DNA of 64,000 nt from an uncultured virus (IMG/VR IMGVR_UViG_3300033155_000850) (IMGVR_UViG_3300033155_000850), one strand, 5' to 3'. Positions 1,582 through 63,792 are shown, counted from the stretch's first letter. Translations and numbers: made by a program. Notes: generated by a model not told the origin, from the sequence alone.

Positions 1582-2033
1582 TGCTCACTGATGATAAAGA
1601 TCATCCAGGTATTGATAAGCCAAAGGACGATGACCCTAGTAAGCAGAACGAAGCTTATTTAATCCTATCTGAAGAAGAGAGGGCTAAAGGGTTTGTAAGG
1701 CCTGTCCGTCTAAAATACTTACATGTAGGTATTAGGCCTAAACATCCAATAAGGGACCTTACGAATGAAGAGAAAGAACGGTTCGATGGATATGGCTATG
1801 TTAAATATGAAGAGTATCCAGATAGTGACTCGTCAGCCGTTGGTAGATACTGGTCAGAAGAGCAACTAACTAGCGGTTGTGGTGGTGCGTTAACCGTAAT
1901 GGCTCAAGAGTTAGGTGAAACTTATGCACGTGACCCTAGTTTTTACGGGGCTACGTGGTGTGTTGCATGTGAAGGGCATCATCCTGTATCAGAGTTTGTA
2001 TGGGATGGTACTGATGAAATAGTTGGGTCATAG
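1581..2033 (+). CDS. Hypothetical phage protein with possible metal-binding CxxC..H
   Basis: Overlapping TAATG start; TWCVACEGHHPVSEF. Confidence 0.7.
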   Translation: MLTDDKDHPGIDKPKDDDPSKQNEAYLILSEEERAKGFVRPVRLKYLHVGIRPKHPIRDLTNEEKERFDGYGYVKYEEYPDSDSSAVGRYWSEEQLTSGCGGALTVMAQELGETYARDPSFYGATWCVACEGHHPVSEFVWDGTDEIVGS

Positions 2034-2045
2034 ACCCGGGAGATA

Positions 2046-2252
2046 TTGATGTCAACTTTGGGTAATCATAGTACGGGTCTACCTTTGTCTAGTGACAGTA
2101 AGGTAGTAACTTCAGCAGTATCAGGTCAGGCTGGACCTTCGTCTAAGCATCATTCTGAACCTAGTGGTGCCAGTGGTGGTAGTGGAGCTAAAGCGGGTAT
2201 GGGTTCAGATCGTCTGCCTCAGGGCAAATTAGATAGTCCTAAGGTACCGTAA
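2046..2252 (+). CDS. Small Gly/Ser-rich protein
   Basis: GGAG RBS; resembles the next ORF. Confidence 0.55.
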   Translation: MMSTLGNHSTGLPLSSDSKVVTSAVSGQAGPSSKHHSEPSGASGGSGAKAGMGSDRLPQGKLDSPKVP

Positions 2253-2470
2253 TGGGTACTCTAGCCGATCATATCGTACAACACGTCCCTCTTACTATAG
2301 ACCCTAAACTGCCTGCAGTGACCTCAGGTTTAGCAGGTAGTAATAATCGAGCGGATCAACAGCATTTCGGTGGTGTTTTTGACGCACAGCAAGAAAATGG
2401 AGTGATGGGTACGCCCACAGCATCTCCAGGACGTATTAATGCGAGATTAAACGGCGTTAAAGTCGGTTAA
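2252..2470 (+). CDS. Small Gly-rich protein, probable paralogue of the preceding ORF
   Basis: TAATG coupling; M.TL..H...PL..D.K...SG.AG shared. Confidence 0.55.
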   Translation: MGTLADHIVQHVPLTIDPKLPAVTSGLAGSNNRADQQHFGGVFDAQQENGVMGTPTASPGRINARLNGVKVG

Positions 2471-2928
2471 TGTCGCAAATACTGGGTAGGAAGTTATATA
2501 CAATGCCAGATCTAGGTGAGTCACTTAGGTCTATACAGGGAGTTATAATGTCTAGAAAAGGTAAATCGACTGTAAGTGAAATTGCTAAAAAGCTAGATAT
2601 TCCTGTGCTCGATACTGAAAGTGATTCCAACGGTATTGAGGTAGACTTTGTGACTGTAGATGAAGCAGCAGAAATCGACCCAGACACATTTAATGGCTTA
2701 AGCGATAGTGATGCTAAAGCTAGTTTCTCATTTTCTTGTAATCATAGAGAATATGATGTTTTTAATGACGCACATGATTATCATGTTACTCCTGATAATG
2801 AGTATGGTGATCTTGACTTTATAGGTAAGATCGTCGTAATAAATGGTGTAGAACGATTATGTGATACTTTTACCGTGGATGATAACGGTAAAATAGTCAT
2901 TAAAGTACGCTGTCGTACTGATGACTAG
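2470..2928 (+). CDS. Hypothetical acidic protein (true start possibly 2548)
   Basis: ORF in operon; GGAG precedes ATG at 2548. Confidence 0.6.
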   Translation: MSQILGRKLYTMPDLGESLRSIQGVIMSRKGKSTVSEIAKKLDIPVLDTESDSNGIEVDFVTVDEAAEIDPDTFNGLSDSDAKASFSFSCNHREYDVFNDAHDYHVTPDNEYGDLDFIGKIVVINGVERLCDTFTVDDNGKIVIKVRCRTDD

Positions 2929-2949
2929 TAAACAGAGTTAAACTAATTA

Positions 2950-4362
2950 ATGGAATTAAGACTTTGGCCTAGACAAAAGGCAGCTTTAATGTCTAAGGCT
3001 AATGAGGTCCTGTATGGCGGTGCCGCAGGAGGAGGGAAGTCGCATTTATTACGCGCGGCTTCCATTATATATAGTATTTGGGTTCCAGGCCTAATTACTT
3101 ATATTTTTCGACGTACGTTTAAGGAGCTTGTCAGTAATCATATAAACACACCCGGAGGGTATCCGGAAATGCTCAGGGACTTTATTAGGGATAAGAAGGT
3201 CCGGTGGGATAAGTCCAATTACCTGTTTGAGTTTGAAAATGGTTCAATCATCCAGTTAGCCCATTCACAGTGGGAAACTGACATTACGACTCATCAAGGA
3301 GCGCAGATTGGATTTTTAGGCATAGATGAGGCCACCCATTTTACAGAGATGATGGTACGTTTCATTAGGTCTAGGGTTAGACTCGGTGGCCTGGAGGTTC
3401 CAGACCAATACCGTGGAATGTTTCCAAGAATTATGTACTGCAGTAACCCTGGGGGTGTTGGACATGATTATTTTAAGACTCAATTCGTTGATCACGGAGA
3501 GAAGTTTTGGCGAGCGCCACCTAGCGATGGAGGTATGACGAGAATGTATGTTCCAGCCAGACTGGCTGATAACTACACATTGACACGAGCTGACCCAGGT
3601 TATGCAGATCGTTTGAGGGGTTTGGGAGATTCAGCATTAGTTGATGCCATGTTATCGGGTGACTGGGATATCATGATGAAAGGAATGTTCAGCGACGTTT
3701 GGGCGCCGCGACTCCAAGTGATTCATCCATTCTTTATACCCAGAACGTGGAAAATCGATCGAGCTCATGACTGGGGCTCGAGTGCTCCTGGCGGAAATTT
3801 ATATTTCGCTGAGTCAAACGGTGATAAGTTTACCGATGCTCATGGCGAAGAAAGAGTCGTTCCCCGCGGTTCTCTCTTCGTTATGGGTGAGTTGTATTTT
3901 GCTAATGAAAAGAGAGAGGGTTTAAAACTATTTCCAGACGAGCAAGCTAGAAGAATGGTAGCGTATGAAAAAGAGAGATTTCCAAATCGTTATATTCGTC
4001 CTGGACCTGCAGACGCGTCTATATGGACTACAGACCAATCTTCAACCAGTATAAATGATCAATTTGTGAACGGTGGGATAATTTTTACTAAATCGGATAA
4101 GTCGCCAGGTTCTAGAGTTCATGGCTGGCAGTTAATAAGACAGATGTTACGTGCTACTATAGATAATAGTACAGAACAAAAACACTTATACATTACTACA
4201 GATTGTCCGCATTTAATAAGAACTGTACCCATGATGCAAAGAGATGATAAGAAAATAGAGGATATCGATACTAGATTAGAAGATCATTTATGTGATATTT
4301 TACGGTATCGTATTTTGAAGTTAAACCAACAAATTCAAATGCGTAAAATCATAGGATTGTAG
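2950..4362 (+). CDS. terL: Terminase large subunit
   Basis: Walker A YGGAAGGGKS, Walker B FLGIDEATHF, SNPGG coupling motif, RNase H-like DWG...DHLCDILRY. Confidence 0.95.
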   Translation: MELRLWPRQKAALMSKANEVLYGGAAGGGKSHLLRAASIIYSIWVPGLITYIFRRTFKELVSNHINTPGGYPEMLRDFIRDKKVRWDKSNYLFEFENGSIIQLAHSQWETDITTHQGAQIGFLGIDEATHFTEMMVRFIRSRVRLGGLEVPDQYRGMFPRIMYCSNPGGVGHDYFKTQFVDHGEKFWRAPPSDGGMTRMYVPARLADNYTLTRADPGYADRLRGLGDSALVDAMLSGDWDIMMKGMFSDVWAPRLQVIHPFFIPRTWKIDRAHDWGSSAPGGNLYFAESNGDKFTDAHGEERVVPRGSLFVMGELYFANEKREGLKLFPDEQARRMVAYEKERFPNRYIRPGPADASIWTTDQSSTSINDQFVNGGIIFTKSDKSPGSRVHGWQLIRQMLRATIDNSTEQKHLYITTDCPHLIRTVPMMQRDDKKIEDIDTRLEDHLCDILRYRILKLNQQIQMRKIIGL

Positions 4363-4363: not shown

Positions 4364-5809
4364 ATGGCCATTGAGCAAAATACTCTATTAGCAATTGGTA
4401 CTCCTGGAGCTCAGATTATTCAGGAAACGTCTCTTCGTCATCCAGACTATACTAAACAAGAGAAAAAATGGAATAGAATTCGTGACTGTGTCGATGGTAG
4501 TGATGCTGTAAAAGCTAAACGAACCACGTATTTACCTAGATTAACTGGTCAAAAAAATGATGAGTATAATGCTTATTTAACTAGAGCTTTATTTGTCTCG
4601 TTTACTGATAGGACCTTGAAAGGTTTGGTCGGTCTTATGACTGAGCGAGAACCCAATATAGAAGCCCCAGAAGAAATGAGAGCGTATTTTGAAGACACTG
4701 ATAATCAAGGTACATCGTTCTTTGAACTCTTACGCTGGGTAACAGAAGAAGTAGTAGCTATGGGTCGAACTGGGTTATTGATAGACTTCCCAGTAGAAGG
4801 CGGGCGAGCATATACTGTTCCATATGCTGCAGAAAATATAATAAATTGGAATACGGATACTGTTACGCGACAACTTAACATGTTGGTACTTCAAGAGCTT
4901 AAGTACTGGCCTCAACCTAATACAATGCATTTTCTATCTCGTTTTATGGAATATAGACTTCTTAGATTATCTCAATCAACTGGGGAATATGAAGGTGAGG
5001 TCTGGAGACGGTCTACGACTGATACGTCATTAGGATCATTGAATAGGCGATCAATAATTGAACCTACCATACGTGGTGAATCCATAGATATTATTCCATT
5101 TACCTTTATCACTTCTGAAGGTATAACTACGGACCTTGTAAAGCCGCCTATGCTAGATATAGTAGATGTTAATTTATCTCATTTTAGAACTAGTGCCGAT
5201 CTAGAGCATGGTCGGCATTTTACTGCACTACCTGTTCCTGTCGTTACTGGTGTAGAGAGTGACGAACCTTTACGTGTGGGTTCTGAACAAGCTTGGGTTC
5301 TTCCGCCTCATCAAGCTAAAGCTTTTTATCTAGAATTTACAGGTCAAGGTTTACAGAGTTTAGAAACAGCTCTTAAAGAAAAATCAGACCAAATGGCTAT
5401 TTTCAGTACACGTATGATGGATAATAGCTCTAGAGGTAGTGAATCTCCTGATAATGTACGTATTAGACATTCGTCTGATGCTGCAAATATGACACGTATT
5501 GTAGAAACTATAGAAAATGCGTTTAATCGTCACTACAATCTAATTAAAGAAATGGAGGGTATTCAAGGACCTCCCGTTAAAATTACACTTAATAAGCACT
5601 TTTTAGACGCTAGGATGCCTGCTTCTGAATTAAGAGAAATTGTTAAGGCGTTTGTTGATGGCGCTATTAATGAAGAAACGCTAATATTTAACCTCACACG
5701 AGGTGATATTATGCAAACAGATACGTTGGATAGAACGGTAGATAAAGATATACCTGGTCCACGTGAAGAAAATAAAAATGACATAACACCTACTGACGAG
5801 GATGAATAG
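4364..5809 (+). CDS. Portal protein (DUF4055-like)
   Basis: Follows TerL; YLP, YL.RA.F and KPPMLDI..VNLSHFRTSAD motifs. Confidence 0.9.
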   Translation: MAIEQNTLLAIGTPGAQIIQETSLRHPDYTKQEKKWNRIRDCVDGSDAVKAKRTTYLPRLTGQKNDEYNAYLTRALFVSFTDRTLKGLVGLMTEREPNIEAPEEMRAYFEDTDNQGTSFFELLRWVTEEVVAMGRTGLLIDFPVEGGRAYTVPYAAENIINWNTDTVTRQLNMLVLQELKYWPQPNTMHFLSRFMEYRLLRLSQSTGEYEGEVWRRSTTDTSLGSLNRRSIIEPTIRGESIDIIPFTFITSEGITTDLVKPPMLDIVDVNLSHFRTSADLEHGRHFTALPVPVVTGVESDEPLRVGSEQAWVLPPHQAKAFYLEFTGQGLQSLETALKEKSDQMAIFSTRMMDNSSRGSESPDNVRIRHSSDAANMTRIVETIENAFNRHYNLIKEMEGIQGPPVKITLNKHFLDARMPASELREIVKAFVDGAINEETLIFNLTRGDIMQTDTLDRTVDKDIPGPREENKNDITPTDEDE

Positions 5810-8618: not shown

Positions 8619-8970
8619 GTTAGTACAGTCGGTAGATAGAGCATTTAATGCTCTAGAGGACCTTGCGGGCGATATGACTATAACGTCTGTATCGAATGAT
8701 TCATATGATCCTAATACAGGCGTATTAACTCAAACGTCTACACCGTATGTAGTAACAGCTGTATTTGATACATACGAAACAGATAGAGTAGATGGTACAA
8801 TTATACAGTCTGAAGATAGGTTGGTTTTAATACAACCTGTAGATACATTTAGGCCTAAGATCGGTGATACTATAACTGACCCTGACGGAATAGTGTATAA
8901 TATTTTGAATTTTAAAGACGTTAGAGCATATGATAGATCATTTTTATGGGAATTACAGGCTCGTAAATGA
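8602..8970 (+). CDS. Head closure protein
   Basis: YDP.TG, DGT.IQ..D, ELQ.RK; position. Confidence 0.75.
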   Translation: MSLENRLVQSVDRAFNALEDLAGDMTITSVSNDSYDPNTGVLTQTSTPYVVTAVFDTYETDRVDGTIIQSEDRLVLIQPVDTFRPKIGDTITDPDGIVYNILNFKDVRAYDRSFLWELQARK

Positions 8971-11292: not shown

Positions 11293-12186
11293 ATGTTCCT
11301 AAGACAGAGCACAGCACAGACAATCCTATTCGGACCTTGCCTTGACATCACTGACGGAGTTACTGAAGAAGTAGCTTTAACACTGGCGCAAGCGGATATG
11401 CGACTGTCTAAAGACGGTGGCGCTTTTGCACAAAAAAATGCCGCCGGTAACGCAACCCATGATTCTGATGGTTGGTATAGCACTTCGCTTGATGCCACAG
11501 ATACGGCTACTGTAGGTATTCTAAGGCTCAACGTTCATCAGCCAGCGAACATGCTCCCACTTTGGGATACATTCTTTGTATTAACCCAAGAAGTTTATGA
11601 TGATATATTTGGAGCTTCTGGTATTGGTTATTTAAAAGCCACTACACCCGGTAACGACCTTGATGTAGCGGCTACGGGTGAAGCCGGTATTGATTTGGGT
11701 AATACATTGGGTAATCTAGTCGCCGCTGACTTCGGTGCTGGCTCTTTAGATGATAAAGGTAATTGGAACGTTGGCAAGTCTGGCTATGCACTTACAACGC
11801 AAAATTGGAACGTAGGTAAAACGGGGTATAGCTTAACTCAAGGCTTTCCAACTAACTTCGCTTCTATGGCGGTTACAGCTGGTGGGGTAGTTGATGCTGA
11901 TATAACAGCTATTAATGGATCAGCAACTGCGGCTGTTCAACTAGCTCTATCTGCAAATGAAATTGAAGATGGTCAATGTGAAGGAACACCTACAACTACA
12001 GTGATTCAGACGGATTTAGCTGAAACGCAAGATGACATCTATATAGGACGTACGATTATATTCACATCAGGTAATGCTAGAGGTGAGGCGTCAGATATAA
12101 CAGATTATGTGGGTTCTACAGGTACGTTAACTGTGACACTTCTTGCAAATGCTCCTGCAGCAACTGATACATTTATTATTTTGTAA
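11293..12186 (+). CDS. Putative virion fibre/structural protein
   Basis: LSK.GGAF, GWY...LDATDT.T.G.L; internal WNVGK.GY.LT repeat. Confidence 0.65.
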   Translation: MFLRQSTAQTILFGPCLDITDGVTEEVALTLAQADMRLSKDGGAFAQKNAAGNATHDSDGWYSTSLDATDTATVGILRLNVHQPANMLPLWDTFFVLTQEVYDDIFGASGIGYLKATTPGNDLDVAATGEAGIDLGNTLGNLVAADFGAGSLDDKGNWNVGKSGYALTTQNWNVGKTGYSLTQGFPTNFASMAVTAGGVVDADITAINGSATAAVQLALSANEIEDGQCEGTPTTTVIQTDLAETQDDIYIGRTIIFTSGNARGEASDITDYVGSTGTLTVTLLANAPAATDTFIIL

Positions 12187-12209: not shown

Positions 12210-13904
12210 GTGAAGTCATATACAAAAACGTTTACTAGACACGCTTTACATGGCGCCCGTATTCTATACGGCAGTTTTGCAGGTAAATCTAGTGGGACTA
12301 AAACATCGTCTGGTAGTCCATCTATACTTCAAGCTGTAGCATCAGGTTCAGCTAAAGTATTAAGATTTGCTACAGGTATAGTAGCAATAGCAGCAATTAC
12401 TGCTACAGCTACAGCTAAGGTTATTAGTACTTCTGATGGGTCATCATCTATAACTATACCTACAGCTGCGGGTGTAGCTAAAATTATAAAGACCTCGTCA
12501 GGGTCTCCGAATATATCAATACCTACTACATCAGGTGTAGCCACAGTTACACCTATAGGTGGAAAGTCATACACTATTACGTTTACTCGTCATGCTTTAT
12601 ATGGCAGTATACGTAAACCATATGGTAGTTTTGCAGGTAAAGTTTCTGGACCTACTAATGCTAACGGTACTCCGTCTATAATACTACCTACATCTGCGGG
12701 TGTAGCGGAAATAATTAAGACAGCCGTAGGTGGACCTTCTACACTTTTACTCACATCTACAGGTGTAGCGGAAGTTATAAAGACTTCGTCAGGGTCTCCT
12801 AGTATACTAATACCTACCACTTCTGGTATTGCAGTATTAGAACATGGGGCTACAGGTTCTCCGTCTACACAATTAATTACAGCATCAGGTGTAGCGAGTG
12901 CCGAAGGCATATTTAATGCTAATGGTTCTCCGTCTATACTATTACCGACGTCATCCGGGTCTGCGGTATTAGAGCGTAGTGCCGTAGGTAACCCATCTAT
13001 ACCATTACTTACTACTTCAGGTGTGGCAGAGGTTATAAAGACCTCTTTTGGATCGCCTTCTACTAGTTTAATCACGTCTTCAGGTTTAGCTAGAATAATT
13101 AATTTAGCTACAGGTAGTCCATCTACGACGTTAATTATAGCTAGTGGTTCTGCTGATCTTATATTAGGTGCATCTGGATCACCATCTACTCAATTAATAA
13201 CGAGTTCAGGTATATCTAGAGTAATTAAAACTGCAACAGGTGCAGTTAGTACTCAGTTATTAATAGGTAGTGGTTTAGCTATAGATATACATATAGCTAC
13301 AGGTTCTCCATTAATTATATTACCTACTAGTTCAGGACTAGCGTCTATAGATAGAAATGCTAGTGGTTCACCTTTACTTACTTTACTAGTAGCTCAAGGT
13401 GTAGCCGATGTTAAAGGTCGTGTTAATGCATCAGGTTCACTTACATTAATTATACCTACTGCTCAAGGTATAGCTATTACCCAATCGTACTCTATATCAG
13501 ACTATGTTTCTGAAATTAGAGATTTACAATCTAGATTTGCGGATAACTGGGGTATAACACCTATACAGTGGAATAATATACTGATAGAAACCAGTGGTTT
13601 AACTGAGTGGGTTAGGTTTATAAATGATTCAAAATCCTCTGTACAAAAAAGTATAGGGTCTAACCCAGATATATACAGATATTTTGGCGAAATAACTATA
13701 GAGATAAACGTAAAACCGAATAGCGGGGCTAATCGAGCATTACAATTGGCGGATTCAGCAGCGGATATATGGCGTAGTGCAAATTTGACTAACATACATA
13801 TGGACGTACCTGAATTAATCATAGACGGTATCAGAAAGGGATGGTATCGAATTAATGTCGTATGCCCTTATTACAGAGACAGTATTCAATTTAGGAGTAT
13901 TTAA
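12210..13904 (+). CDS. 21-aa-repeat fibre protein fused to a second tail-terminator-like domain
   Basis: About 17 copies of xxxSGSPSIxxPTxSGVAxII; C-terminal ~130 aa resemble 9340-9750. Confidence 0.75.
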   Translation: MKSYTKTFTRHALHGARILYGSFAGKSSGTKTSSGSPSILQAVASGSAKVLRFATGIVAIAAITATATAKVISTSDGSSSITIPTAAGVAKIIKTSSGSPNISIPTTSGVATVTPIGGKSYTITFTRHALYGSIRKPYGSFAGKVSGPTNANGTPSIILPTSAGVAEIIKTAVGGPSTLLLTSTGVAEVIKTSSGSPSILIPTTSGIAVLEHGATGSPSTQLITASGVASAEGIFNANGSPSILLPTSSGSAVLERSAVGNPSIPLLTTSGVAEVIKTSFGSPSTSLITSSGLARIINLATGSPSTTLIIASGSADLILGASGSPSTQLITSSGISRVIKTATGAVSTQLLIGSGLAIDIHIATGSPLIILPTSSGLASIDRNASGSPLLTLLVAQGVADVKGRVNASGSLTLIIPTAQGIAITQSYSISDYVSEIRDLQSRFADNWGITPIQWNNILIETSGLTEWVRFINDSKSSVQKSIGSNPDIYRYFGEITIEINVKPNSGANRALQLADSAADIWRSANLTNIHMDVPELIIDGIRKGWYRINVVCPYYRDSIQFRSI

Positions 13905-15080: not shown

Positions 15081-15128
15081 ATATTTGGCAGTAGTATCTA
15101 GGACCTTTAGGTATTACTGCCAACATAT
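15081..15128 (+). terminator. Long hairpin after the tail tube gene (terminator or processing site)
   Basis: TTGGCAGTAGTATCTA pairs with TAGGTATTACTGCCAA; GGACCTT sits at the loop. Confidence 0.55.
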
Positions 15129-32006: not shown

Positions 32007-32015
32007 AAGGACCTT

Positions 32016-34058: not shown

Positions 34059-34059
34059 T

Positions 34060-47035: not shown

Positions 47036-47236
47036 TCATTTAATCATACCTACAAAATTACCGTCACGATCATAAATTCTTTTGGACCTTTCATTTATGT
47101 GTCCAGCAAAATTACCTTTACTATCATAGATTCTAAGAGTATCAGAACTACTAGATACAGTAGACGGTGTATATTCTTTATGTGAGGCGCACGCCGTGAG
47201 TAAGAGCGCCAGAATCATTACTAATATCTTATTCAT
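47036..47236 (-). CDS. Small lipoprotein
   Basis: LLTAC lipobox; duplicated RIYD..GNF.G. Confidence 0.6.
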   Translation of the reverse strand: MNKILVMILALLLTACASHKEYTPSTVSSSSDTLRIYDSKGNFAGHINERSKRIYDRDGNFVGMIK

Positions 47237-50256: not shown

Positions 50257-52101
50257 TTATATAGATTTAACCTCCCCAAATGACGGCCCGATTTTAGCAC
50301 CAAATGGTAGTGGTAAAAGAATATCTTTATTCCAAAGCCTAGACCAGTTGGTCTTATTCAATTCATTTCTCATATCTAATGCTAACTCTTTTGCATGATC
50401 TACAGGTAGATAATACCAGATACCGTCATGCAAATCTAGAGTGAATATAGCCTCTGGAAATTTACGAGCTATGATAGAAATGGCTGCATTCTTATGGTCA
50501 CCACCACTACCTTGTATTGGAAAGTTAATTGCTGATTGCTCTGTTCCATACTCATATTTACCGGACCAGAATTTAAGATGGAATCTACGACCAGCAATTG
50601 ACTCTGCATAACCTAAATCTTTAGCAGACCATATAGCTTTATCCCAATATTTCTTTACACCTGGGTATCGACTTTTATACATACCCAAATATCTAAATGC
50701 TTCAGCCTTTAGTATGGTAATGCCGTATGTAGTGAAGAATTTATACGCTAAAGATTTAGCTCCAATACGATATTGACAACTAAGATTAAGAAGCTTACCC
50801 GCATATCTATAATTAACCGCTTCAGAGTCTTCAGCCTCTAATAATTCCAACAACTCTTCATAAGGTATTCCAGATATAAACGATGTCATAGATGAATGAA
50901 CGTCTATACCGTTATTAAAATCTTGTAATAGATTGAATTCATTTGCTATTTGACCTACAAATCTGAGTTCTTGTTGTTCTCCGTCAAGCTCACACACAAC
51001 ATATCCGTCAGGAGCTGTGAGCAATGATCTGATAGGACCTTTTCTTGGTAGTTGGTGGTTTGCGATACCACTTGCCCACTTTTTGAGGGTTTTAGCAACG
51101 TAAGTATATCGCCCTGTGTAAGTACCAAATATATTAGGCATGGCATGAGTGTAATTAGAGTTATTATATGCAACCGAATTATTGATCCCATTAATGAATT
51201 TCGATTCAATTGTTGCAAGCTTTTTGAAATTAAGGACTGTTCTGATAAATTTTGCATCTTCTGTACCCATTAATTTATCTTCTAATAGAAGTAAATTATC
51301 TTTAGCTGCACTAGCTTTACCTTTTGGTGTACGTCCTTGTACTGGAAGTCTCTTAGTCTCAAATAATAAGTGTGATAATTGTTGAGGTGAATTTAAACAT
51401 TCCACTGATTGACCTATACTCGCCGCTAATTTTTTCTTGTATGCGACAAATTTAGGTTTTAATGCTAGTGTTCTCTTACTATCTACATGTAAGCCATTTA
51501 ACCATGCATTAGCTACAGGGACTATATTAGCTTGTTCATATACATATCCGGACCTTTGCTCTTTAGGTAGTATAGCCCACATTTCTTCTACGGCTAATCT
51601 AGTAAATATAGCATCATATCCACCGCGTTTTAACCAGTAATCATAGTCTTCACCAGCTATTACAGCGGCTTTTTTAAGGTCAAGAAAATCCTCTAAATCT
51701 GGATGCTCTTTTACATACTTTTCTACTACCGCACTGAGAGATAAACTCCATCTCATCTTATCAGCTACTTGACCATTAACTATCCACTTATATAAAAGAG
51801 CTGAATCTCTCCATTTTATACCTAAAAGTAACTCATATTCGGTTTTAGCTATTAACCAACCTACATCGAATACAGCTCTATGAGCAAATACAGTTTTACC
51901 TTTAAGGTATGCTAACATACCCCATACTTCATCCATATTTTCGGATCGTTCATCGATCTGACGAAAATATCCGTCCGGTCCAGACACAGCTATGGAAGTA
52001 ATTCTAGCATCACCATCTGGTAGACGATAACATTCTAATGCGTACTCTTTACCCGGTACGTTAGATGCTGTCTCTATATCTAATGAATAAAAATCAGTCA
52101 A
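50257..52101 (-). CDS. polA: Family A DNA polymerase with 3'-5' exonuclease
   Basis: Exo DIET / FD, T.TGR, motif A DGEQQELR, motif B R..GK.LNLSCQY, NFPIQGS, motif C LHDG. Confidence 0.93.
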   Translation of the reverse strand: MTDFYSLDIETASNVPGKEYALECYRLPDGDARITSIAVSGPDGYFRQIDERSENMDEVWGMLAYLKGKTVFAHRAVFDVGWLIAKTEYELLLGIKWRDSALLYKWIVNGQVADKMRWSLSLSAVVEKYVKEHPDLEDFLDLKKAAVIAGEDYDYWLKRGGYDAIFTRLAVEEMWAILPKEQRSGYVYEQANIVPVANAWLNGLHVDSKRTLALKPKFVAYKKKLAASIGQSVECLNSPQQLSHLLFETKRLPVQGRTPKGKASAAKDNLLLLEDKLMGTEDAKFIRTVLNFKKLATIESKFINGINNSVAYNNSNYTHAMPNIFGTYTGRYTYVAKTLKKWASGIANHQLPRKGPIRSLLTAPDGYVVCELDGEQQELRFVGQIANEFNLLQDFNNGIDVHSSMTSFISGIPYEELLELLEAEDSEAVNYRYAGKLLNLSCQYRIGAKSLAYKFFTTYGITILKAEAFRYLGMYKSRYPGVKKYWDKAIWSAKDLGYAESIAGRRFHLKFWSGKYEYGTEQSAINFPIQGSGGDHKNAAISIIARKFPEAIFTLDLHDGIWYYLPVDHAKELALDMRNELNKTNWSRLWNKDILLPLPFGAKIGPSFGEVKSI

Positions 52102-52476: not shown

Positions 52477-52698
52477 TTAAATGGAAGACCTAGAACGACC
52501 AAAATCTGCATTCGGTGGCCCATCACCTTTAGAGTGTAGTTCATGATCTAGTGAGATAGCATCCGGCATCATTTTTATTAGGAATTCAATAGACCTAGCT
52601 ATAGCCGCTGCATGACCACCTTCTAAAGCTGATTCTTGATGAGTATTACCGTGTTTTTTAGGAAAACTTCCTTCCAATGTTATAGTTATTTGTCCCAT
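52477..52698 (-). CDS. Hypothetical protein
   Basis: TAATG coupling. Confidence 0.6.
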   Translation of the reverse strand: MGQITITLEGSFPKKHGNTHQESALEGGHAAAIARSIEFLIKMMPDAISLDHELHSKGDGPPNADFGRSRSSI

Positions 52699-54860
52699 TA
52701 TCTTACCACCTTGAGTGCTGTTTCAGTTTTATTAGCTTCAAATATTTTACGATATTCTAATTGTATTCGTGCTATATCTCCATCATCATATGTACCGTGA
52801 TTACGACATGTATGTAAAACCTGTTTTATTGAAGGACCTTCGACAATTATAGTTGAGTCACTGCCTTCAGCTATTTTAGGTACTATAGCTTGTCTACTTC
52901 TACGACTACCTTTAGATTTAAGAGATTGAAATGTGTTTCTCATAATCTGTTTTAAATGTCCACCACTAATTTGACCACCTCTATGTACATGTGCTCTAAG
53001 AAAGAATTCTATAGAATCCTTAGTCACTATATCAGAATTGAACACACTGTAAAAGTTTTCTACCGCTTCAAGAATCGTTCCTTCTTCATTACTTCTTCCG
53101 GCTTCGACCATGATGTCCATGGAGTCTGTATGCGGGGCTCGTCCCTTGTAGGCGAATTGAGATACATCTCTTTGTGCCATGAAGTTGAAGACTGAGCTAT
53201 AACCCCCGTCCTGCAACCAGTTGTGTAATTTAGTGTAGTATGCCTCAGATCTAGGATTTTGATGGTTGATGTGCACAAAGAAGCGGCGGCTATCAGTTTT
53301 GATATGTACTGCGTCTTCCCTATTCGAGAACAATACAAAGTTTGCGAATATTTCCGTAGCATATGCATCGACTCCTTTTGGCTCAACAGTCTGAGTACTT
53401 TCTGTTACATAACTCTTAAGTTTAGATACAATTTCATATCTTTTCCTAGAGTCTAACTCCTCAAGTTCATTCACTAAAATTAAGACTGAGGAAGTTAAGA
53501 AAGTATTGAATGTCTTATTAAATACACCTGCAGATATGTTTTTAGTATTCCAAAATCCTACTAAATGAGATATAATGTTAAAGAGAAAATTCTTACCAAG
53601 ACCTTCGTGTACTGAAACTATTATAGGAGCCCACGTCATTTTTAAGTACGGTCTTTGTACTAGATGTCCTATCCAATCCATCATTATAGATGCGTCTTCT
53701 TCCATAAGATAGTTCATAAACTCTATAAACGGATCTATGTCTACAGGATCATCAATTATCCTGTGGTCAGGTGCTCTATAGGAATTTATTACATCAGTAC
53801 CTAATACGGGATCGTAATAGGTTTCATCTTTAACAGGTTTATACCCTACAAACCCAGACATTTTTCTATCTGTATGCTTTATCCAACGATCGAATGCTGG
53901 TACAGGTTTTTGTGATCCATCGGCTTTTTCTTCCCATATCATCCAGTTAGCGAATGATGTTTTTGATTCAGTCAATCTAAGAGTAGCTATATTAGATGGT
54001 TTTGAACTATCATAAACTCTAGGTCCAGAGGATATTAATACTAGATTATCTAGCATCCAATCCAACTTATCCTCTATCATTGGCTCGAATTTAGCAAATG
54101 TTTGATCTAATCGTGGAAGATAGTCTTCCATTCTTAAATCATCTCCTTCACATCTAGAAAGAGCTACCTCTAATAATATAACCGCATTATCATATGATAT
54201 TTTACGAGCCCATGATGCCATTAATCTTATAAGGGTATCATGTCTCTCTCCTGACTCTATTATTTTAGGTATACTACCTCGTAATGACGAAATTTCGTTA
54301 TGATCTATAAGTGTTTCGGCACTTTGAGTATTTACTTTCTCTCTTACTATATTTCCTATGGGTAATTTCTCAGATAGTAATCCAATTTCAGCTAGAGTTA
54401 TGTCTTGCAGTAGTTTATAACCATTAACTTCGGTTGGACCTACTACGAAACCTCTATTTCCTCGTATATCTATACCATCTAAATCCATCCAATTAGTTAT
54501 AGATAAAATATAGCGAGAGTCTGGTATATTAGGATATTGATAGTAAAGATGCAAACCATTATTCATGGTTTTAACAGCTAGAGTTTTTATATCTAAATTA
54601 AATTTATCGCGAAGTATTTGAAGGGATTCTTTTCCGTTTTTATCTTTTTTAACATCTACGTCTATAATAAACGCGTTATTACCTGGACACACTCCAAAAC
54701 TATCACAATATTTATATTTACCTGTATACCAAGTTTCTATTTGATTTTTATCGGTGGTGGCTCTATCTGGCCATTCTTTTATTTGTGGATTTCTCTTGTG
54801 AACTGGAAATATAGGTAGTCCACGACCGGCGAAGCTTAACGCGGCATCTAATACTGTCAC
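52698..54860 (-). CDS. Bifunctional primase-polymerase fused to SF3-type helicase (DUF5906)
   Basis: IDVDVK, T...GLHLYY, IDIRG..GFVVGP, G.RHD, EGLGKN, NE, FSN..DA....DSRRF. Confidence 0.9.
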   Translation of the reverse strand: MTVLDAALSFAGRGLPIFPVHKRNPQIKEWPDRATTDKNQIETWYTGKYKYCDSFGVCPGNNAFIIDVDVKKDKNGKESLQILRDKFNLDIKTLAVKTMNNGLHLYYQYPNIPDSRYILSITNWMDLDGIDIRGNRGFVVGPTEVNGYKLLQDITLAEIGLLSEKLPIGNIVREKVNTQSAETLIDHNEISSLRGSIPKIIESGERHDTLIRLMASWARKISYDNAVILLEVALSRCEGDDLRMEDYLPRLDQTFAKFEPMIEDKLDWMLDNLVLISSGPRVYDSSKPSNIATLRLTESKTSFANWMIWEEKADGSQKPVPAFDRWIKHTDRKMSGFVGYKPVKDETYYDPVLGTDVINSYRAPDHRIIDDPVDIDPFIEFMNYLMEEDASIMMDWIGHLVQRPYLKMTWAPIIVSVHEGLGKNFLFNIISHLVGFWNTKNISAGVFNKTFNTFLTSSVLILVNELEELDSRKRYEIVSKLKSYVTESTQTVEPKGVDAYATEIFANFVLFSNREDAVHIKTDSRRFFVHINHQNPRSEAYYTKLHNWLQDGGYSSVFNFMAQRDVSQFAYKGRAPHTDSMDIMVEAGRSNEEGTILEAVENFYSVFNSDIVTKDSIEFFLRAHVHRGGQISGGHLKQIMRNTFQSLKSKGSRRSRQAIVPKIAEGSDSTIIVEGPSIKQVLHTCRNHGTYDDGDIARIQLEYRKIFEANKTETALKVVR

Positions 54861-55178: not shown

Positions 55179-55592
55179 ATGACGGCCTATAGAACAGCTA
55201 GTTTTTTTAGAGTTACGGCCTATCTTAGATTAAACGGGGAAAAAAGGCCCCTCGGTTTTTTCTTCGTCCGCAACATAAACCCAATTAAAGAAGACCTTGT
55301 GGACCTTCGGATAGTTCCTACGTCTGATAGAAATGGTTTTTTAATTCATATAGAAGATCATGATTGCAGTAAACTCCCAATTGAACTCAAATATGTAGAC
55401 CCTATTACAGCCAAAGGTATATGTCAATTCATTATAGATCATAATGAAGGTGCTACATATGTTAAAGATGATGAGAAATCTATTTGGACTGAATTATTTG
55501 GCAAAATTAACTACGATGTATCATTTCCTAATGATATAATTAGGTTTAAAGGGTTAAATGGTTTTAATTTAAATCTACATAATAGGGCGTAA
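55179..55592 (+). CDS. Hypothetical protein
   Basis: Downstream of promoter. Confidence 0.6.
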   Translation: MTAYRTASFFRVTAYLRLNGEKRPLGFFFVRNINPIKEDLVDLRIVPTSDRNGFLIHIEDHDCSKLPIELKYVDPITAKGICQFIIDHNEGATYVKDDEKSIWTELFGKINYDVSFPNDIIRFKGLNGFNLNLHNRA

Positions 55593-55595: not shown

Positions 55596-55949
55596 ATGTC
55601 TAGTTTATATGAACGGTTTAAATCATGGACAGCTGCAAGACAACGAACTGACATCTGGAGAGCTGTAATAGGGATAGTAATTGTCGCGATAATTTTATCT
55701 CTTTTAACTGGTTGTAGTACTACAGGACCTTCGATGACTGTAGCTGCGTCATATGAAGGTGATGGAGTTATTGTATTAAAACAACCAATATTTCAAAGTC
55801 AAATTGTTTGTACACCTCCTAAACATGAAGTATTTATAAACTATCTACACCATTCAGAAATATTTAAAGAGACTGATGAAGATACGTATGATGGTATTCA
55901 TTTAGGGTATACCCACAATTTCGGTAAATGGATCTGGCAAAAGGATTAA
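55596..55949 (+). CDS. Putative lipoprotein
   Basis: TM plus LLTGC lipobox. Confidence 0.6.
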   Translation: MSSLYERFKSWTAARQRTDIWRAVIGIVIVAIILSLLTGCSTTGPSMTVAASYEGDGVIVLKQPIFQSQIVCTPPKHEVFINYLHHSEIFKETDEDTYDGIHLGYTHNFGKWIWQKD

Positions 55950-56258: not shown

Positions 56259-56729
56259 GTGAAAATAAGTAAAAACTTTACTCTAGAAGAATTCCTTGTT
56301 TCACAGACAGCTGTTCGTCATAGTATAGACATGACTCCACCTTTGGACATTCGAAATAACATAGTACGATTTGTAGAAACTATAGCTCAACCATTAAGGG
56401 ACGAATTAGGTTCATCTATCACAATTAATTCTGGTTTTAGACCTGATAAATTAAATACTCTTATAGGTGGATCAAAAACGTCGGCCCACAGATTTGGCTG
56501 TGCTGGTGATATGAGATGCAACGCGGTATCCCCTCTTGGTTTAGCTCAAATGATTATGGATATGGACCTTTTGTACGACCAAGTTATACATGAGTTTGGA
56601 GCTTGGGTACATTGCGGTATTAGATGGGATAACCAGGATATTCGTAAAGAAGAACTTACATCATATAAGAATAAGGTCAATAAAACTATCTATGTACCAG
56701 GCTTACACTCTATAGAGAGCCTTATTTAA
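56259..56729 (+). CDS. Endolysin, peptidase M15 (Zn peptidase)
   Basis: S.NFTL.EF..S, INSGFR...LN..IGG..TSAH..G.A.D, WVH. Confidence 0.9.
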   Translation: MKISKNFTLEEFLVSQTAVRHSIDMTPPLDIRNNIVRFVETIAQPLRDELGSSITINSGFRPDKLNTLIGGSKTSAHRFGCAGDMRCNAVSPLGLAQMIMDMDLLYDQVIHEFGAWVHCGIRWDNQDIRKEELTSYKNKVNKTIYVPGLHSIESLI

Positions 56730-59348: not shown

Positions 59349-59733
59349 TCTCATAGCATCTATTGCCCTATGTACAGGTTGTGCTCATACAGATCAATGG
59401 ACTGATAAAGATACTAAACACTTTGCTACATACGTAGCGGCCGCATCGTTAGATACATTCAGCACAAACCGTTTAATAAACGATTTTTACTATACAGAGG
59501 AACGTAATCCTGTAATAGTAAGGACCTTTGGACAACGACCCTCTAAAAAAGAATTGATAGTTGGAACTATAGTAATCTCCATTACAAATTTCTTTATTGC
59601 TAGAGCTATTCCAGAAAAATATCGTCGCAAATATCTTTCTATATGGACCTTCGGGCATACGACTCTATCTATGTATAATTTTAATTTGTACAACAAATGC
59701 GCAGGAATATATGACTGTGGTTCTATTGACTAA
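59335..59733 (+). CDS. Lipoprotein/membrane protein (DUF5658-like E.NP motif)
   Basis: CTGC lipobox, D...T, ERNP. Confidence 0.55.
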   Translation: MRSISLIASIALCTGCAHTDQWTDKDTKHFATYVAAASLDTFSTNRLINDFYYTEERNPVIVRTFGQRPSKKELIVGTIVISITNFFIARAIPEKYRRKYLSIWTFGHTTLSMYNFNLYNKCAGIYDCGSID

Positions 59734-61669: not shown

Positions 61670-62107
61670 ATGATAGAAATCGGTTTCACAGGAACTAGGC
61701 AGGGTATGACTATACCTCAACATGCCGCCCTAGTAAAAATCATGTTATCTTATCGTAAGATGACAGAAGCTTCATTTATGTGGCATCATGGTTTATGTAT
61801 AGGCTCTGACGAACAATGCCATAATTTAGCTACGATCTTTGATTTTTACATATTCGGTCATCCACCTATTAACGAAGACCTTGTAGCCGAACTTACTGGA
61901 TTTCGTGGTTTAGCTCCAGCTAAAGGTTATATAGCTCGTAATCATACAATAGTGGACAGTACAGAGATACTTATTGCTACTCCGCATGAACTTAAAGAAC
62001 AAGTACGTAGCGGCACGTGGGCTACTATTAGATACGCTAAAAAACGCGGTAAACGTGTAACTATAATTAATCCTTACGGAAATACTTATGTGTATTCAGA
62101 TCTATGA
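61670..62107 (+). CDS. SLOG-superfamily (DprA/YspA-like) protein
   Basis: IGFTGTR.G, HG.C.G.D, RN..IVD....LIA, SGTW.TIRYA.K.GK. Confidence 0.75.
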   Translation: MIEIGFTGTRQGMTIPQHAALVKIMLSYRKMTEASFMWHHGLCIGSDEQCHNLATIFDFYIFGHPPINEDLVAELTGFRGLAPAKGYIARNHTIVDSTEILIATPHELKEQVRSGTWATIRYAKKRGKRVTIINPYGNTYVYSDL

Positions 62108-62786
62108 GTGAAGATATATTTGGCATCGGTGAACTTAGCTGGAATAATAGCAGACAAAGATGGTGTGGACTTGTAAACTTTTTTGGATCTCTATGTATAG
62201 CGGAATTTAGAGTAACGACCGATAAAGTTGAATCTCCAGTTTTATCGAAAATATCATGAAACCAAAAGATACAGGTTTAGTACATGCTATTAAAGAATTT
62301 TCAAAAGAAGCTTCAGGTATACTGTTTTGGACCGGATTTATGGCTGGCATACTATTAGGCCTTTTGGTCAGTGCAGCTGTACTCATATATTTTAATGCGA
62401 GGATGTATGTTTAAATTTACACAAACAGATGAAATGACAGAAATCATTCAAAAAATGTATTCTGATGGCGGCCTTGTTAATTTAGAAATAGAAAAAGTTA
62501 AGGGTAACCATATAAAACTCTATTGTACCTACAAAGGTATACGATTACTAGAAATGGGACCTATACCACTTAAACGTGTTGGTGACATTATCAACGTAAA
62601 TGATATGAAAATTCGATTAGAAAAATAGTGAAAATTCGAATTGAAGATCACGCTGATACAGAAGCCATGGAGTGTCCTAATTGCTCTGAAATAGCTTTAC
62701 AAGCAATGACTACAAAAACGGATAATAACGGTAAAGATTTCACTGTATACGAATGCAATGAATGCCATATGGAGCAAAATTATTAA

Positions 62787-63262
62787 TGGCTAAATTCGTC
62801 ATAGTGTGTATGAACGATTCACACGGTAAAATCCCGCTCCAACCAGATATATCGTTAGGTAATAAGATATGGGGTATGACCGGAATTACTATGATACAAT
62901 ATGCACGAGTCTTTAATCGTAAAAACTTATTTGGTATAAACGAATCTAGAAGTAAAGATAACGCTAAATTAAATGCTTATAGAATACTTAAAAACGTAAA
63001 TTCTATAGACACAGACACATTTATTATATGTCTAGGTAAAGAAGTAGCCACAGCATTTGGTCTATATACAGCTATGCCTTTAAAGTTCAAAAAAATTCAA
63101 ACAAAAACGTGGGCAGCATATCTCCCTTATGAGTCTGAGTTTAATAGACGTTCTAGTTTAAGCGAGAGGAGACTTGCAGCCACTGAATTTATGCAGAGTG
63201 TAGGTGCAGCCGCAATCGGAGAGATTAGTGAAGATGATTTACATCACCATTTCGCTCAGTAG
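62787..63262 (+). CDS. Possible uracil-DNA-glycosylase-like fold protein
   Basis: F.R.NL, IICLGK.VA.AFG, YLP.ES..NR. Confidence 0.4.
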
Positions 63263-63328
63263 CTCTCTACTTTACTCTGATATAAACGTTCAGTACTATG
63301 TATAACTAGCAGAGAATTGTAGAGAGCC
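63260..63328 (+). repeat. Dispersed hairpin element, copy 5
   Basis: GTATAACTAGCAGAGAATTGTAGAGAG is identical to the copy at ~699-725; GCTCTCTAC/GTAGAGAGC closing stem. Confidence 0.8.
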
Positions 63329-63330
63329 TA

Positions 63331-63792
63331 ATGAATAGATATAGTAGTTGGTTTGATGTAGGACCTTTAGGCTGTGGACGAACTACAGCTATAGCTAAAG
63401 CATGTAAAAGTATCAACGCTACTATGTTATGTGCAACATCTAACCATGCTAAAGAGGTTGCTAATGAACATGGTATTAAAACCGCGTCTATACAGAATGT
63501 CGACCATGGTTATAGAGGTCCATTCTTAGCAGATCATTATGCTATACAGTCTATAACTCATGATTATGAGGCTATGATAGCAGAACGAAACATAGAAATC
63601 AGTGCATTAAAACTCCGTATAAATAGACAAAGTTCATTGATAGATAGATATAGAGAACAACGAGATACTTACAAAAAAACATATTTAAAATCACTTGAAA
63701 TTAAGGATGAATACGATAAACTGAAGAAGCAAGTTTGCTGTTCATGTTGCGGTTCAATTTTAGAAACCGGTGAATGTGCTAGGTGTGAATGA
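63331..63792 (+). CDS. Degenerate P-loop/coiled-coil/Zn-ribbon protein
   Basis: GPLGCGRTT, FLADH, CSCCG...CARC. Confidence 0.5.
   Translation: MNRYSSWFDVGPLGCGRTTAIAKACKSINATMLCATSNHAKEVANEHGIKTASIQNVDHGYRGPFLADHYAIQSITHDYEAMIAERNIEISALKLRINRQSSLIDRYREQRDTYKKTYLKSLEIKDEYDKLKKQVCCSCCGSILETGECARCE

Follow-up and report, generated by a model that had tools for sequence, protein, structure and literature searches.

A strand-polarised heptamer, GGACCTT, marks the chromosome of an uncultured tailed phage independently of its genes

What holds a seven-letter word on one strand of a phage chromosome, and what might read it there? We analysed GGACCTT in a 64-kb stretch (the window) of the roughly 78-kb chromosome of an uncultured tailed phage. 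An exact count found 44 copies, 42 on the + strand and 2 on the - strand (Table 1), the numbers that an earlier sequence-only reading had estimated by hand; that reading had named balance between the strands as the outcome that speaks against a signal, and the computed counts are unbalanced. Every position that it listed holds the word on the + strand, and its list left off the four copies of a tandem array. Base composition predicts 2.58 copies on the + strand and 2.46 on the - strand, as anticipated (two to three per strand), and dinucleotide-shuffled sequences (n = 100) hold 5.4 copies on average and at most 11, counted over the two strands. The + strand is thus enriched about 15- to 16-fold, with the - strand at chance level. 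GGACCTT is the most strand-asymmetric 7-mer in the window, and its one-mismatch variants are at background, with the exceptions of AGACCTT (9:0) and GGAGCTT (7:0). Copies on the + strand occur about once per 1.5 kb (42 in 64 kb), with a mean spacing of 1.6 kb that is not more even than random (coefficient of variation 1.00, compared with 0.75–1.21 for random placement) and a largest gap of 8.6 kb. The polarity switches nowhere in the 64-kb window, nor across 33 kb of a sister genome (G001).

This distribution does not follow the genes. The ratio is 19:1 in + genes and 21:1 in - genes, and all three reading frames hold the word in genes of both orientations, so that the sequence-only reading was right to place it on the same physical strand in both coding arms and in different frames. 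The enrichment also persists under the codon shuffling proposed there as a check: 500 shuffles that preserved the amino acids and the codon use of each gene gave a + strand mean of 10.9 (s.d. 1.7, maximum 18; this mean still counts 7 copies lying outside the shuffled gene set) compared with the 42 observed, and a - strand mean of 2.0. Coding positions at which the protein permits the word are filled in 35 of 106 cases on the + strand, compared with 2 of 85 for the complement; for 40 permuted 7-mers used as a control, occupancy averaged 2.9% and reached at most 11.6%. Because GGACCTT keeps to one strand whichever way the genes run, it marks the DNA molecule itself. It is a polar, positively selected DNA-level signal, as had been claimed.

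Table 1 Copies of GGACCTT in the window and genes discussed in relation to them
Feature	Position	Strand	Context
GGACCTT	1754..1760	+	+ gene 1581-2033, frame 2
GGACCTT	2133..2139	+	+ gene, frame 0
GGACCTT	4611..4617	+	portal gene
GGACCTT	5131..5137	+	portal gene
GGACCTT	8658..8664	+	+ gene
GGACCTT	11332..11338	+	+ gene
GGACCTT	12732..12738	+	+ gene
GGACCTT	15101..15107	+	small + ORF
GGACCTT	18075..18081	+	tape-measure gene
GGACCTT	18124..18130	+	tape-measure gene
GGACCTT	18930..18936	+	+ gene
GGACCTT	19354..19360	+	+ gene
GGACCTT	22155..22161	+	sole copy within the 9.6-kb tail-protein gene 19813-29427
GGACCTT	30788..30794	+	+ gene
GGACCTT	32009..32015	+	intergenic, directly past the hairpin and T-run terminating the + arm
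GGACCTT, four in tandem	32198..32229	+	starts 32198, 32206, 32215, 32223 (spacing 8, 9, 8); spacer between ligase gene and small - gene, convergent arm junction
GGACCTT	32508..32514	+	antisense, ligase gene
GGACCTT	35934..35940	+	antisense, - gene
GGACCTT	36795..36801	+	antisense, carbamoyltransferase gene
GGACCTT	37424..37430	+	antisense, carbamoyltransferase gene
GGACCTT	37599..37605	+	position common to L026
GGACCTT	41564..41570	+	antisense, - gene
GGACCTT	41968..41974	+	antisense, - gene
GGACCTT	43151..43157	+	ORF 42926-43294 (-), excluded from shuffled gene set
GGACCTT	43248..43254	+	ORF 42926-43294 (-), excluded from shuffled gene set
GGACCTT	43943..43949	+	position common to L026
GGACCTT	46165..46171	+	antisense, PD-(D/E)XK nuclease gene
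GGACCTT	47084..47090	+	antisense, - gene
GGACCTT	48456..48462	+	antisense, - gene
GGACCTT	49468..49474	+	antisense, - gene
GGACCTT	51035..51041	+	PolA gene; position common to L026
GGACCTT	51550..51556	+	antisense, PolA gene
GGACCTT	52834..52840	+	antisense, PrimPol-helicase gene
GGACCTT	55301..55307	+	AGACCTT 9 nt upstream; position common to L026, both copies exact there
GGACCTT	55725..55731	+	+ gene
GGACCTT	56564..56570	+	endolysin gene
GGACCTT	59522..59528	+	+ gene
GGACCTT	59645..59651	+	+ gene
GGACCTT	63361..63367	+	+ gene
GGACCTT, opposite-strand copy 1 of 2	3196..3202	-	about the chance number
GGACCTT, opposite-strand copy 2 of 2	43002..43008	-	
Large terminase (TerL) gene	2950..4362	+	word on its sense strand
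ATP-dependent DNA ligase gene	32235..33317	-	adjoins tandem array
Conserved 106-aa nuclease-like protein	45301..45621	-	phrog_93 endonuclease / Holliday junction resolvase; VRR-NUC below cut-off
PrimPol + SF3 (D5-like) helicase gene	52698..54860	-	PF09250 Prim-Pol, DUF5906

One source of strand bias can be set aside on the counts. The EcoP15I sites of phage T7 have a strand bias that evades Type III restriction, and GGACCTT is likewise asymmetric, with all but two copies pointing one way. Evasion of this kind predicts the loss of one orientation and not the gain of the other; here, the - strand holds 2 copies compared with 2.5 expected, and the + strand 42 compared with 2.6. Enrichment of one strand with the other at chance argues strongly against such evasion, which we regard as scarcely credible.

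Sister genomes retain both the word and its polarity (25:2 in G001; 17:0 in L026, in both gene arms), the conservation in relatives that the earlier reading had named as a check, although positions mostly turn over: the window and L026, about 70% identical at the nucleotide level, agree in position at 4 of 13 aligned sites, above the neutral expectation, yet most differ. In two relatives at a greater distance, the equivalent strand holds a variant word, TCTACCTT, with CTACCTT counts of 21:1 in G002 (17 of the 21 in its right half) and 20:4 in G004. Among the relatives checked, G003, G005 and the cultured Acinetobacter phage Effie have no clear dispersed polar word.

GGACCTT is the dispersed form of a longer repeat, NNACCTTCGGGC, which is found in four lineages. 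Arrays of NNACCTTCGGGC occupy GC-rich non-coding DNA upstream of the terminase genes, between these and five repeated early promoters, and adjoin a conserved gene for a small helix–turn–helix (HTH) protein of the P0097 family (in G001, G002, G003 and G004). Array copies have a 10–12-nt core common to the four lineages, and only the first two letters differ. In G001, 12 copies of GGACCTT lie within 900 bp (2942-3821), about 3 kb upstream of the start of the window. The word lies on the sense strand of TerL in the window, G002, G003 (arrays only) and G004. Its fuller consensus, W-GGACCTT-Y, is followed at a distance of 8 nt by a weak second copy, and at isolated sites this copy is degenerate and occurs at +8 only (z = 5.2 in the window and 4.1 in L026). 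The degenerate partner and the longer array consensus point to a protein that would bind duplex DNA head to tail, and not to a reader of single-stranded DNA. Together with the repeat common to four lineages and the variation among lineages, they favour a phage-encoded reader that would recognise GGACCTT in the duplex, always in the same orientation along the chromosome.

The most likely mechanism, which we propose tentatively and by analogy, is that of the one-strand nick sites of the T5, phiKMV and tf/LUZ24 types. A phage-encoded, sequence-specific activity would recognise GGACCTT and nick the word-carrying strand in mature DNA, and after cell entry the phage ligase and PolA would reseal the nicks. 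We infer both the nicking and the identity of the reader protein by analogy only. Phage tf carries 14 TACT/RTGMC sites in 46 kb, all on the top strand; its two transcription units converge, and its relatives retain the motif, at similar positions within the LUZ24 group (PMC3517423). In phage Rembedalsseter, strand-specific drops in read coverage coincide with all 13 WACTRTGAC sites, which lie on a single strand, and the motif is enriched in 60 related phages (PMC11780129). Confinement to one strand, independence of orientation and conservation are what has been described for proven nick motifs, and we count their occurrence here in favour of nicking. GGACCTT is such a short, asymmetric word, irrespective of gene direction and kept in related phages, and its genome has a ligase and transcription units that converge.

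The likeness has limits. GGACCTT is a different and shorter word (7 nt) and matches none of the nick consensuses that these sources give: TACT/RTGMC and WACTRTGAC for tf/LUZ24-like phages, CGACxxxxxCCTA/CTCCGG for phiKMV-like phages and R/GCGCRGG for T5 (PMC3517423, PMC11780129). It is two to three times denser than the sites reported for tf, its positions mostly differ between relatives in contrast to those described for the LUZ24 group, some of its copies are in tandem or clustered and follow a longer consensus, and the phage, a siphovirus, belongs to an unrelated family. Nicking of all sites in the tandem array, which lie 8–9 nt apart, and in the G001 cluster would cut out short oligonucleotides and create gaps, and this counts against the nick reading.

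The sequence-only reading had pointed to a ligase and nucleases that could act at the word, and the window does encode a ligase and a PD-(D/E)XK nuclease, along with PolA, an SNF2 helicase/translocase and many unknown proteins. The ligase could seal nicks, if GGACCTT sites are nicked; against nicking, G003 and G005 have a ligase as well, and both are relatives without the dispersed word. The conserved 106-aa nuclease-like protein is a speculative nickase candidate; the scanned proteins (Pfam, PHROGs) include no HNH enzyme, and no candidate was assigned as the nickase.

A thymidylate-synthase homologue, dCMP deaminase, MazG-like protein and NolO-like carbamoyltransferase are also encoded in the window, a modification-type gene set that suggests that thymines are modified. 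GGACCTT, which contains TT, might accordingly be the target word of a thymidine-modification system, as had been proposed, or of another strand-specific DNA modification. However, the same genes occur in G003 and G005, which have no dispersed word, and being a target explains neither the 15-fold enrichment on one strand nor the arrays. Both points argue against the proposal, which we consider very improbable.

The fused PrimPol-helicase offers another candidate reader. Under a priming hypothesis, also drawn by analogy, GGACCTT would be its recognition site on the lagging-strand template during one-way replication, with the arrays as the origin. The genome encodes a helix-bundle-type PrimPol, the helicase part of which matches structures of the phage NrS-1 primase–polymerase (PDB 6k9c and 6k9e; E = 4 × 10^-10). 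Okazaki fragments span a size range that includes 1.6 kb, the mean spacing of the word, and the arrays adjoin the repeated early promoters, as in transcription-activated origins. In the part of the source used here, the NrS-1 enzyme recognises, in addition to GTG, the 8-nt sequence TTTGGTTA, a precedent for a word of 7–8 nt; the ORF904 primase of plasmid pRN1 recognises GTG, and a genome-wide one-strand distribution is not described for either enzyme (PMC8718748). Moreover, the word does not track the primase: G002 and G004 share TCTACCTT with PrimPols only 25% identical, and G003, which has the PrimPol closest to that of the window among four distant relatives (42%), has no clear dispersed word. 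The random-like spacing and the 8.6-kb gap also weigh against priming, as does its assumption of one-directional replication of the whole genome, since GC skew in the window tracks transcription instead of one single replication direction. We consider priming sites an unlikely explanation.

The word might instead be bound and not cut. By analogy with KOPS and SRS, which orient FtsK and SpoIIIE, a phage DNA-binding protein could use the arrays beside the HTH gene as its primary site (for packaging initiation, as an origin or as a regulatory hub), and the dispersed copies could orient or load a motor (terminase, SF3 helicase or SNF2 translocase) one way; we see this as possible, if doubtful. KOPS and SRS are polar words of 7–8 nt, dispersed in coding DNA and read on the duplex by a winged-helix domain, and KOPS change strand at the origin and at dif. 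GGACCTT is likewise polar, 7 nt long and dispersed through coding DNA, but it never switches strand, and the window encodes no FtsK-like motor. To our knowledge, no tailed phage requires genome-wide orienting words. Binding would suit the placement of the arrays beside the P0097-family gene in four genomes. P0097 has 157 homologues with a near-invariant core and a confident predicted model (pLDDT 88.6) in which a three-helix bundle comes after one N-terminal helix; its structural matches are to HTH DNA-binding domains only and are all weak (best E-value 1.4). The +8 partner would fit head-to-tail cooperative binding, and random spacing with positional turnover is expected if the number of sites matters and not their place. 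Yet P0097 is tied to GGACCTT by neighbourhood alone, is kept in G005 and Effie, neither of which has the dispersed word, and is 49–64% identical across lineages whose words differ in their first two letters. We hold as similarly doubtful a more specific form, in which the word would be a directional instruction for a DNA motor and not a cut site, with the NNACCTTCGGGC arrays as the loading site and the dispersed copies making the SF3 PrimPol-helicase (in priming) or another translocase travel or start one way. If so, the whole chromosome would be copied or handled in one direction only, and GGACCTT would be the phage equivalent of KOPS, or else a long primase word used genome-wide, like the one that NrS-1 PrimPol recognises.

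A Chi-like role is absent from the mechanisms of the sequence-only reading, which named nicks, a packaging or ejection pause signal, unidirectional priming and a modification target; it has a close published precedent (PMC12315714). In this case, by analogy, host RecBCD or AddAB would read the word; at copies facing the open end of a concatemer that is being replicated or packaged, the nuclease would stop degrading DNA and turn to recombination, a role put forward for LLS and MD8, two Chi-rich lambdoid phages that lack a Rec module. That study reports 23 Chi sites in Escherichia coli phage LLS, 20:3 in favour of the active orientation, at one per 1.86 kb and with a concentration towards the right end, and 32:0 in Pseudomonas aeruginosa phage MD8, in which no octamer is more frequent than the Chi word; with the terminase genes at the left, the top strand carries the active orientation (PMC12315714). 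GGACCTT resembles these sites in its single orientation, in its density (about one site per 1.2–1.9 kb across the three phages), in its place on the terminase-sense strand with TerL at the left and in being the most extreme k-mer of its genome, and perhaps in its clusters by the terminase-proximal junction (the 12 copies in G001 lie directly upstream of the terminase region). A Chi-like role would also fit the turnover of positions with number kept, and the lineage-variable words and word-less relatives would suit a host-specific signal. Among the scanned proteins, no Red-beta, RecT, Erf or other single-strand annealing protein and no Gam-type protein was recognised, as this role would allow. 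By contrast, a host Chi gives no reason for the longer core that the arrays of four phage lineages share, single-strand reading of the word would not lead one to expect the degenerate +8 partner, and base modification of the DNA is probable, with two T in the word. We regard a Chi-like role as improbable. LLS and MD8 carry the known Chi of a known host. Here, a host search with the phage tmRNA, which is of the alphaproteobacterial type, returned matches only to the universal T-arm.

The heptamer GGACCTT (the word) has 42 + strand copies and 2 − strand copies in the window, against base-composition expectations of 2.6 and 2.5, and ranks first among 7-mers for strand asymmetry; 100 dinucleotide shuffles gave a mean of 5.4 copies with both strands summed (maximum 11). 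One-letter variants occur at about background, except for AGACCTT (9:0) and GGAGCTT (7:0). Every coordinate in the sequence-only reading was correct, although its site list omitted four tandem copies (see table). That reading also held that the polarity is independent of gene orientation and belongs to the DNA, and the counts bear it out. With ORF-based gene calls made in this analysis, the +:− ratio is 19:1 within + genes and 21:1 within − genes, and all three frames carry the word in genes of either orientation. The enrichment, 42 copies observed on the + strand, outlives 500 shuffles that preserve proteins and codon use, which left a mean of 10.9 + copies (maximum 18; the mean counts in 7 copies located outside the shuffled genes) and a mean of 2.0 − copies. 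Coding positions at which the protein permits the word are filled in 35 of 106 cases on the + strand and 2 of 85 on the − strand; 40 permuted words used as a control fill 2.9% of possible positions on average and 11.6% at most. The shuffle, frame, strand and occupancy counts together establish a real and very strong signal that is carried by the DNA itself. An RNA-level signal is excluded because the word is sense in one gene arm and antisense in the other, and Rfam and ARAGORN found no RNA element in the window beyond a tmRNA.

A second, weaker one-strand word, CGTCTATA, has 13 + sites and 2 − sites in the window, within genes of both directions, where codon shuffling gives a mean of 3.0 and a maximum of 8 (n = 300). 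It is 5:1 in G001, the nearest relative record, and only 2:1 in L026, a metagenome locus of a sister phage, and its conservation among relatives is doubtful. TACTGATG, polar-looking in G001, was rejected as a further polar word: it tracks gene direction in the window.

The window is part of an uncultured siphovirus genome, on a contig of 78,072 bases. About 14 kb of the genome lies beyond the window, of which about 6.5 kb is seen solely through the near-identical record G001 (also L115; G001 coordinate = window coordinate + 6554). A + arm to about 32 kb holds the structural genes (large terminase, portal, scaffold, major head protein, tape measure and a 3204-aa tail protein), a − arm (32–55 kb) the genes for replication and nucleotide metabolism, and a second + arm, after the − arm, small genes. 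Replication genes encode an ATP-dependent ligase, PolA, a PrimPol fused to an SF3 helicase, an SNF2 helicase and a PD-(D/E)XK nuclease. The metabolism genes (dCMP deaminase, a thymidylate-synthase homologue, a MazG-like pyrophosphohydrolase and a NolO-like carbamoyltransferase), with a P-loop kinase-like protein and a conserved 289-aa protein of no recognised family, make up a set that suggests thymidine hypermodification; the set is common to four more distant relatives, G002–G005. The nearest cultured relatives are Acinetobacter phages Effie and HHU4 and Xanthomonas phage Xp15, at 35% PolA and 52% TerL identity.

Features in the window and in related records, with coordinates
Feature	Record	Coordinates	Strand	Basis or content
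Candidate thymidine-hypermodification gene set	window	34060-38069 and 38221-39090	-	gene content
P-loop kinase-like protein of that set	window	35439-35984
3204-aa tail protein gene	window	19813-29427	+	J-like N-terminus, tail-fibre-like C-terminus
Two-piece (permuted) tmRNA, alphaproteobacterial type	window	57693-58022	+	RF04321 120 bits, RF01849 85 bits
Putative small terminase gene	window	949-1308
Conserved 106-aa protein	window	45301-45621		PHROG 'endonuclease' and 'Holliday junction resolvase'; VRR-NUC below Pfam cut-off
Four tandem copies of the word	window	32198-32229
CGTCTATA sites, including	window	4016, 12673, 22055, 37274, 46465, 50901, 54659, 63485	+
Tandem array of a 14-bp unit	window (L115)	~1-120 (6517-6673)
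Array of the word	G001/L115	2942-3821		12 same-strand copies
P0097 gene	L115	3221-3490
78-nt repeats	L115 (G001)	5628-6945		five copies
Palindromes of form AATGACAATCATTATCATTA	L115	3882-3904, 5364-5383, 6160-6181
Arrays of units ATGACAATGAATGA	G005	~33800-34800
Tandem 27-bp unit	G002	51500-51643 and 1-120

In the 56 dispersed sites pooled from the window and L026, an A or T precedes the word in 48 and a T or C follows it in 47. At isolated sites a second, degenerate copy follows at exactly +8 nt, with a mean match of 2.66 of 7 in the window (z 5.2) and 3.00 in L026 (z 4.1) against 1.70 by chance; upstream or at other offsets no partner signal was seen, save a weak one at +9. The sites are spaced no more evenly than under random placement (CV 1.00, random range 0.75–1.21), and the largest gap, 8.6 kb, falls within the giant tail gene.

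Close relatives keep the word. G001, which shares 53% of sampled window 31-mers, counts 25:2 in favour of the equivalent strand. In L026, whose PolA is 78% identical to that of the window, the 21.8-kb piece counted from a 62-kb metagenome contig is 17:0 for the equivalent strand, with 12 copies in one gene direction and 5 in the other. Thirteen of these 17 sites lie within blocks alignable to the window (about 70% identity), and the word stands in both genomes at 4 of the 13; between the two phages its number and polarity are therefore kept, and its positions turn over. A further locus, L027 (PolA 62% identical), is 3:0 in 13.6 kb, and no GGACCTT excess was found in the other 23 viral loci, with PolA identity of at most 48%.

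Two of the more distant relatives, both complete, carry a variant of the word. The most asymmetric 7-mer of G002 (51.6 kb, PolA 43%) is CTACCTT, at 21:1 overall and, when genes are separated by direction, 8:0 and 13:1; its extended form there is TCTACCTTC. CTACCTT is 20:4 in G004 (59 kb, PolA 45%). Codon-possible positions for it are filled in 20 of 75 cases versus 1 of 57 on the other strand in G002, and in 17 of 100 versus 4 of 57 in G004. In the window as in G002 and G004, the strand bearing the word is the sense strand of the terminase gene and antisense to PolA. G003 shows a mild ACCTT skew only (100:63), and neither G005 nor the cultured phage Effie shows any. A wider search of viral contigs with the patterns GGACCTTN{1,2}GGACCTT and AGGACCTTCGGGCC matched at least 129 and at least 119 stretches, respectively. 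G001 itself aside, the word-rich loci inspected, L399 and L401, were rejected, since their opposite strand codes for collagen-like Gly-X-Y repeats; other word-rich loci listed (for example, L363, L056 and L062) are presumed to be the same, and the remaining loci among the matches listed are single chance matches. No unrelated phage with polar GGACCTT was found among the matches listed, a pattern scan being a weak method.

The word also occurs in arrays. The 12 copies in G001, some 3 kb before the window begins, lie within 880 bp of non-coding DNA of 57–66% G+C, compared with about 40% genome-wide; they have the longer unit (G)TAGGACCTTCGGGCC in common and flank P0097, a conserved small gene found beside such arrays upstream of terminase genes. 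A paralogue, P0098, is 1.3 kb from P0097, and its exact sequence is on record for the 78-kb contig of the window itself. In G002, GC-rich DNA with three CTACCTTCG copies is followed by a tandem palindromic repeat, a promoter-like repeat and a P0097 homologue; near the homologue in G003 there are six or seven ACCTTCGGGC copies (GAACC... and CTACC...); and in G004 three (T/C)C(T/C)ACCTTCGGGC copies immediately adjoin the homologue. No such array was found in G005. The core of the arrays of G001–G004, ACCTTCGG(GC), is thus common to four lineages of the family, which differ solely in the two letters preceding it; the dispersed word is the 5′ half of this core. The tandem in the window (copies spaced 8, 9 and 8 nt, in the spacer where two arms converge) adjoins the 3′ end of the ligase gene, and two copies 27 nt apart directly follow the ligase gene of G004.

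The 78-nt repeats just upstream of the window start each end with a ribosome-binding site and ATG (AAATAAACGTGTACA...TATTATAG...GGAGA...ATG) and resemble early promoters in multiple copies, each with a leader, that drive small ORFs; in G002 the P0097 homologue follows a promoter-like sequence of similar kind. Palindromes of the form AATGACAATCATTATCATTA near the arrays resemble the E. coli Fur box, and the long arrays of G005 are built of related units. The 27-bp unit of G002, with a palindromic core (AATCCTAATATTAGGATT), runs across the contig junction, and that array may be all that lies behind the annotation of G002 as having a 'direct terminal repeat'.

One-strand words are a known kind of feature in phages. 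By analogy, the GGACCTT sites could be nick sites, a reading that we favour tentatively. Two reports describe 14 nick-motif sites in phage tf, all on the top strand of a genome with two convergent transcription units, and a motif kept in tf relatives (PMC3517423), as well as 13 sites in phage Rembedalsseter, on one strand only and with a strand-specific coverage drop at each, and 60 relatives enriched in its motif (PMC11780129). Both give the purpose of the T5 and tf nicks as unknown (PMC3517423, PMC11780129). If nicked, the window phage would carry about 55 or more nicks per genome, among the densest known; tandem copies 8–9 nt apart are, however, awkward for a nickase. A polar binding or orienting signal, read without cutting, is a less probable account.

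The headline features of the word are common not only to the tf and Rembedalsseter motifs but also to Chi-rich lambdoid phages. In LLS (20:3, one Chi site per 1.86 kb) and MD8 (32:0), drawn so that the terminase genes are at the left, the sites are on the top strand and concentrated at the right end, and both phages are without a recombination module (PMC12315714). A Chi-like word would fit well the density of GGACCTT, its positional turnover, its strand relative to the terminase gene and the cluster near the terminase region. We nevertheless consider it rather improbable: the longer core common to the arrays, their fixed place beside a conserved phage gene, the +8 partner copy and the probable thymine modification better fit a phage-encoded duplex-binding reader than a one-strand-scanning host enzyme. 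A literature search on the AddAB Chi sequence in Alphaproteobacteria found nothing relevant. That the word is a modification target is very unlikely, restriction avoidance is scarcely credible, and something else takes the remaining probability.

Among candidate readers, P0097 has 157 database homologues, none named and many on very short contigs, with an almost invariant core. Its AlphaFold model (pLDDT 88.6) consists of one long helix and then a three-helix bundle; Foldseek against the PDB gave weak matches to HTH DNA-binding domains (for example, sigma region 4, ArdK and KorA; best E-value 1.4) and none with E ≤ 0.001, and no Pfam or PHROG family scored above threshold. G005 and Effie, both without the dispersed word, have retained the gene as well, and P0097 may serve the arrays only. 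For use of the word as a PrimPol priming site there is a true precedent among enzymes: the PrimPol–helicase matches, over its helicase part, the primase-polymerase of phage NrS-1, which recognises an 8-nt template word besides GTG (PMC8718748). The word fails to co-vary with PrimPol, however, and priming seems to us an improbable role. G002 and G004 have a common word yet PrimPols that are just 25% identical, and the PrimPol nearest that of the window among the four distant relatives (42%) belongs to G003, a genome without the dispersed word. Identity matrices for ten shared proteins contained none that pairs G002 with G004; in a presence/absence search for a reader, the recognisable core genes were all common to word-bearing and word-free relatives. 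The proteins scanned included no recognisable HNH nuclease, single-strand annealing protein or Gam.

New here are GGACCTT itself, the +8 partner and the very high density, together with the derivation of the word from an older local array common to four lineages, the replacement of two letters from one lineage to another with the strand kept, and relatives without dispersed copies. No paper on GGACCTT in a phage context was found, as judged by titles and the starts of abstracts. The window phage family adds a one-strand-word system with unusually many sites, and the contrasts of array origin, letter change and word-free relatives make the question of reader and purpose a comparison that can be run among sister genomes. 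Defined oligonucleotides, such as GGACCTTTGGACCTT, follow for tests of binding, nicking and priming.

The 9.6-kb tail gene holds a single GGACCTT and has no homologue in G002–G005; recent acquisition would fit the single copy. The phage tmRNA, with the tag peptide ANDEVYDLPLALAA, is absent from G001–G005 by family search, and its type hints at an alphaproteobacterial host. BLAST of the tmRNA against 401 genomes of one phylum matched the T-arm alone, and a 33-nt stretch of it tried as a host marker in a genome-contig scan proved universal. The tandem array at the start of the window has about 10 copies of its unit, CCGACCAGCGCCTC, and CAGCGCCTC is 9:0 across the window.
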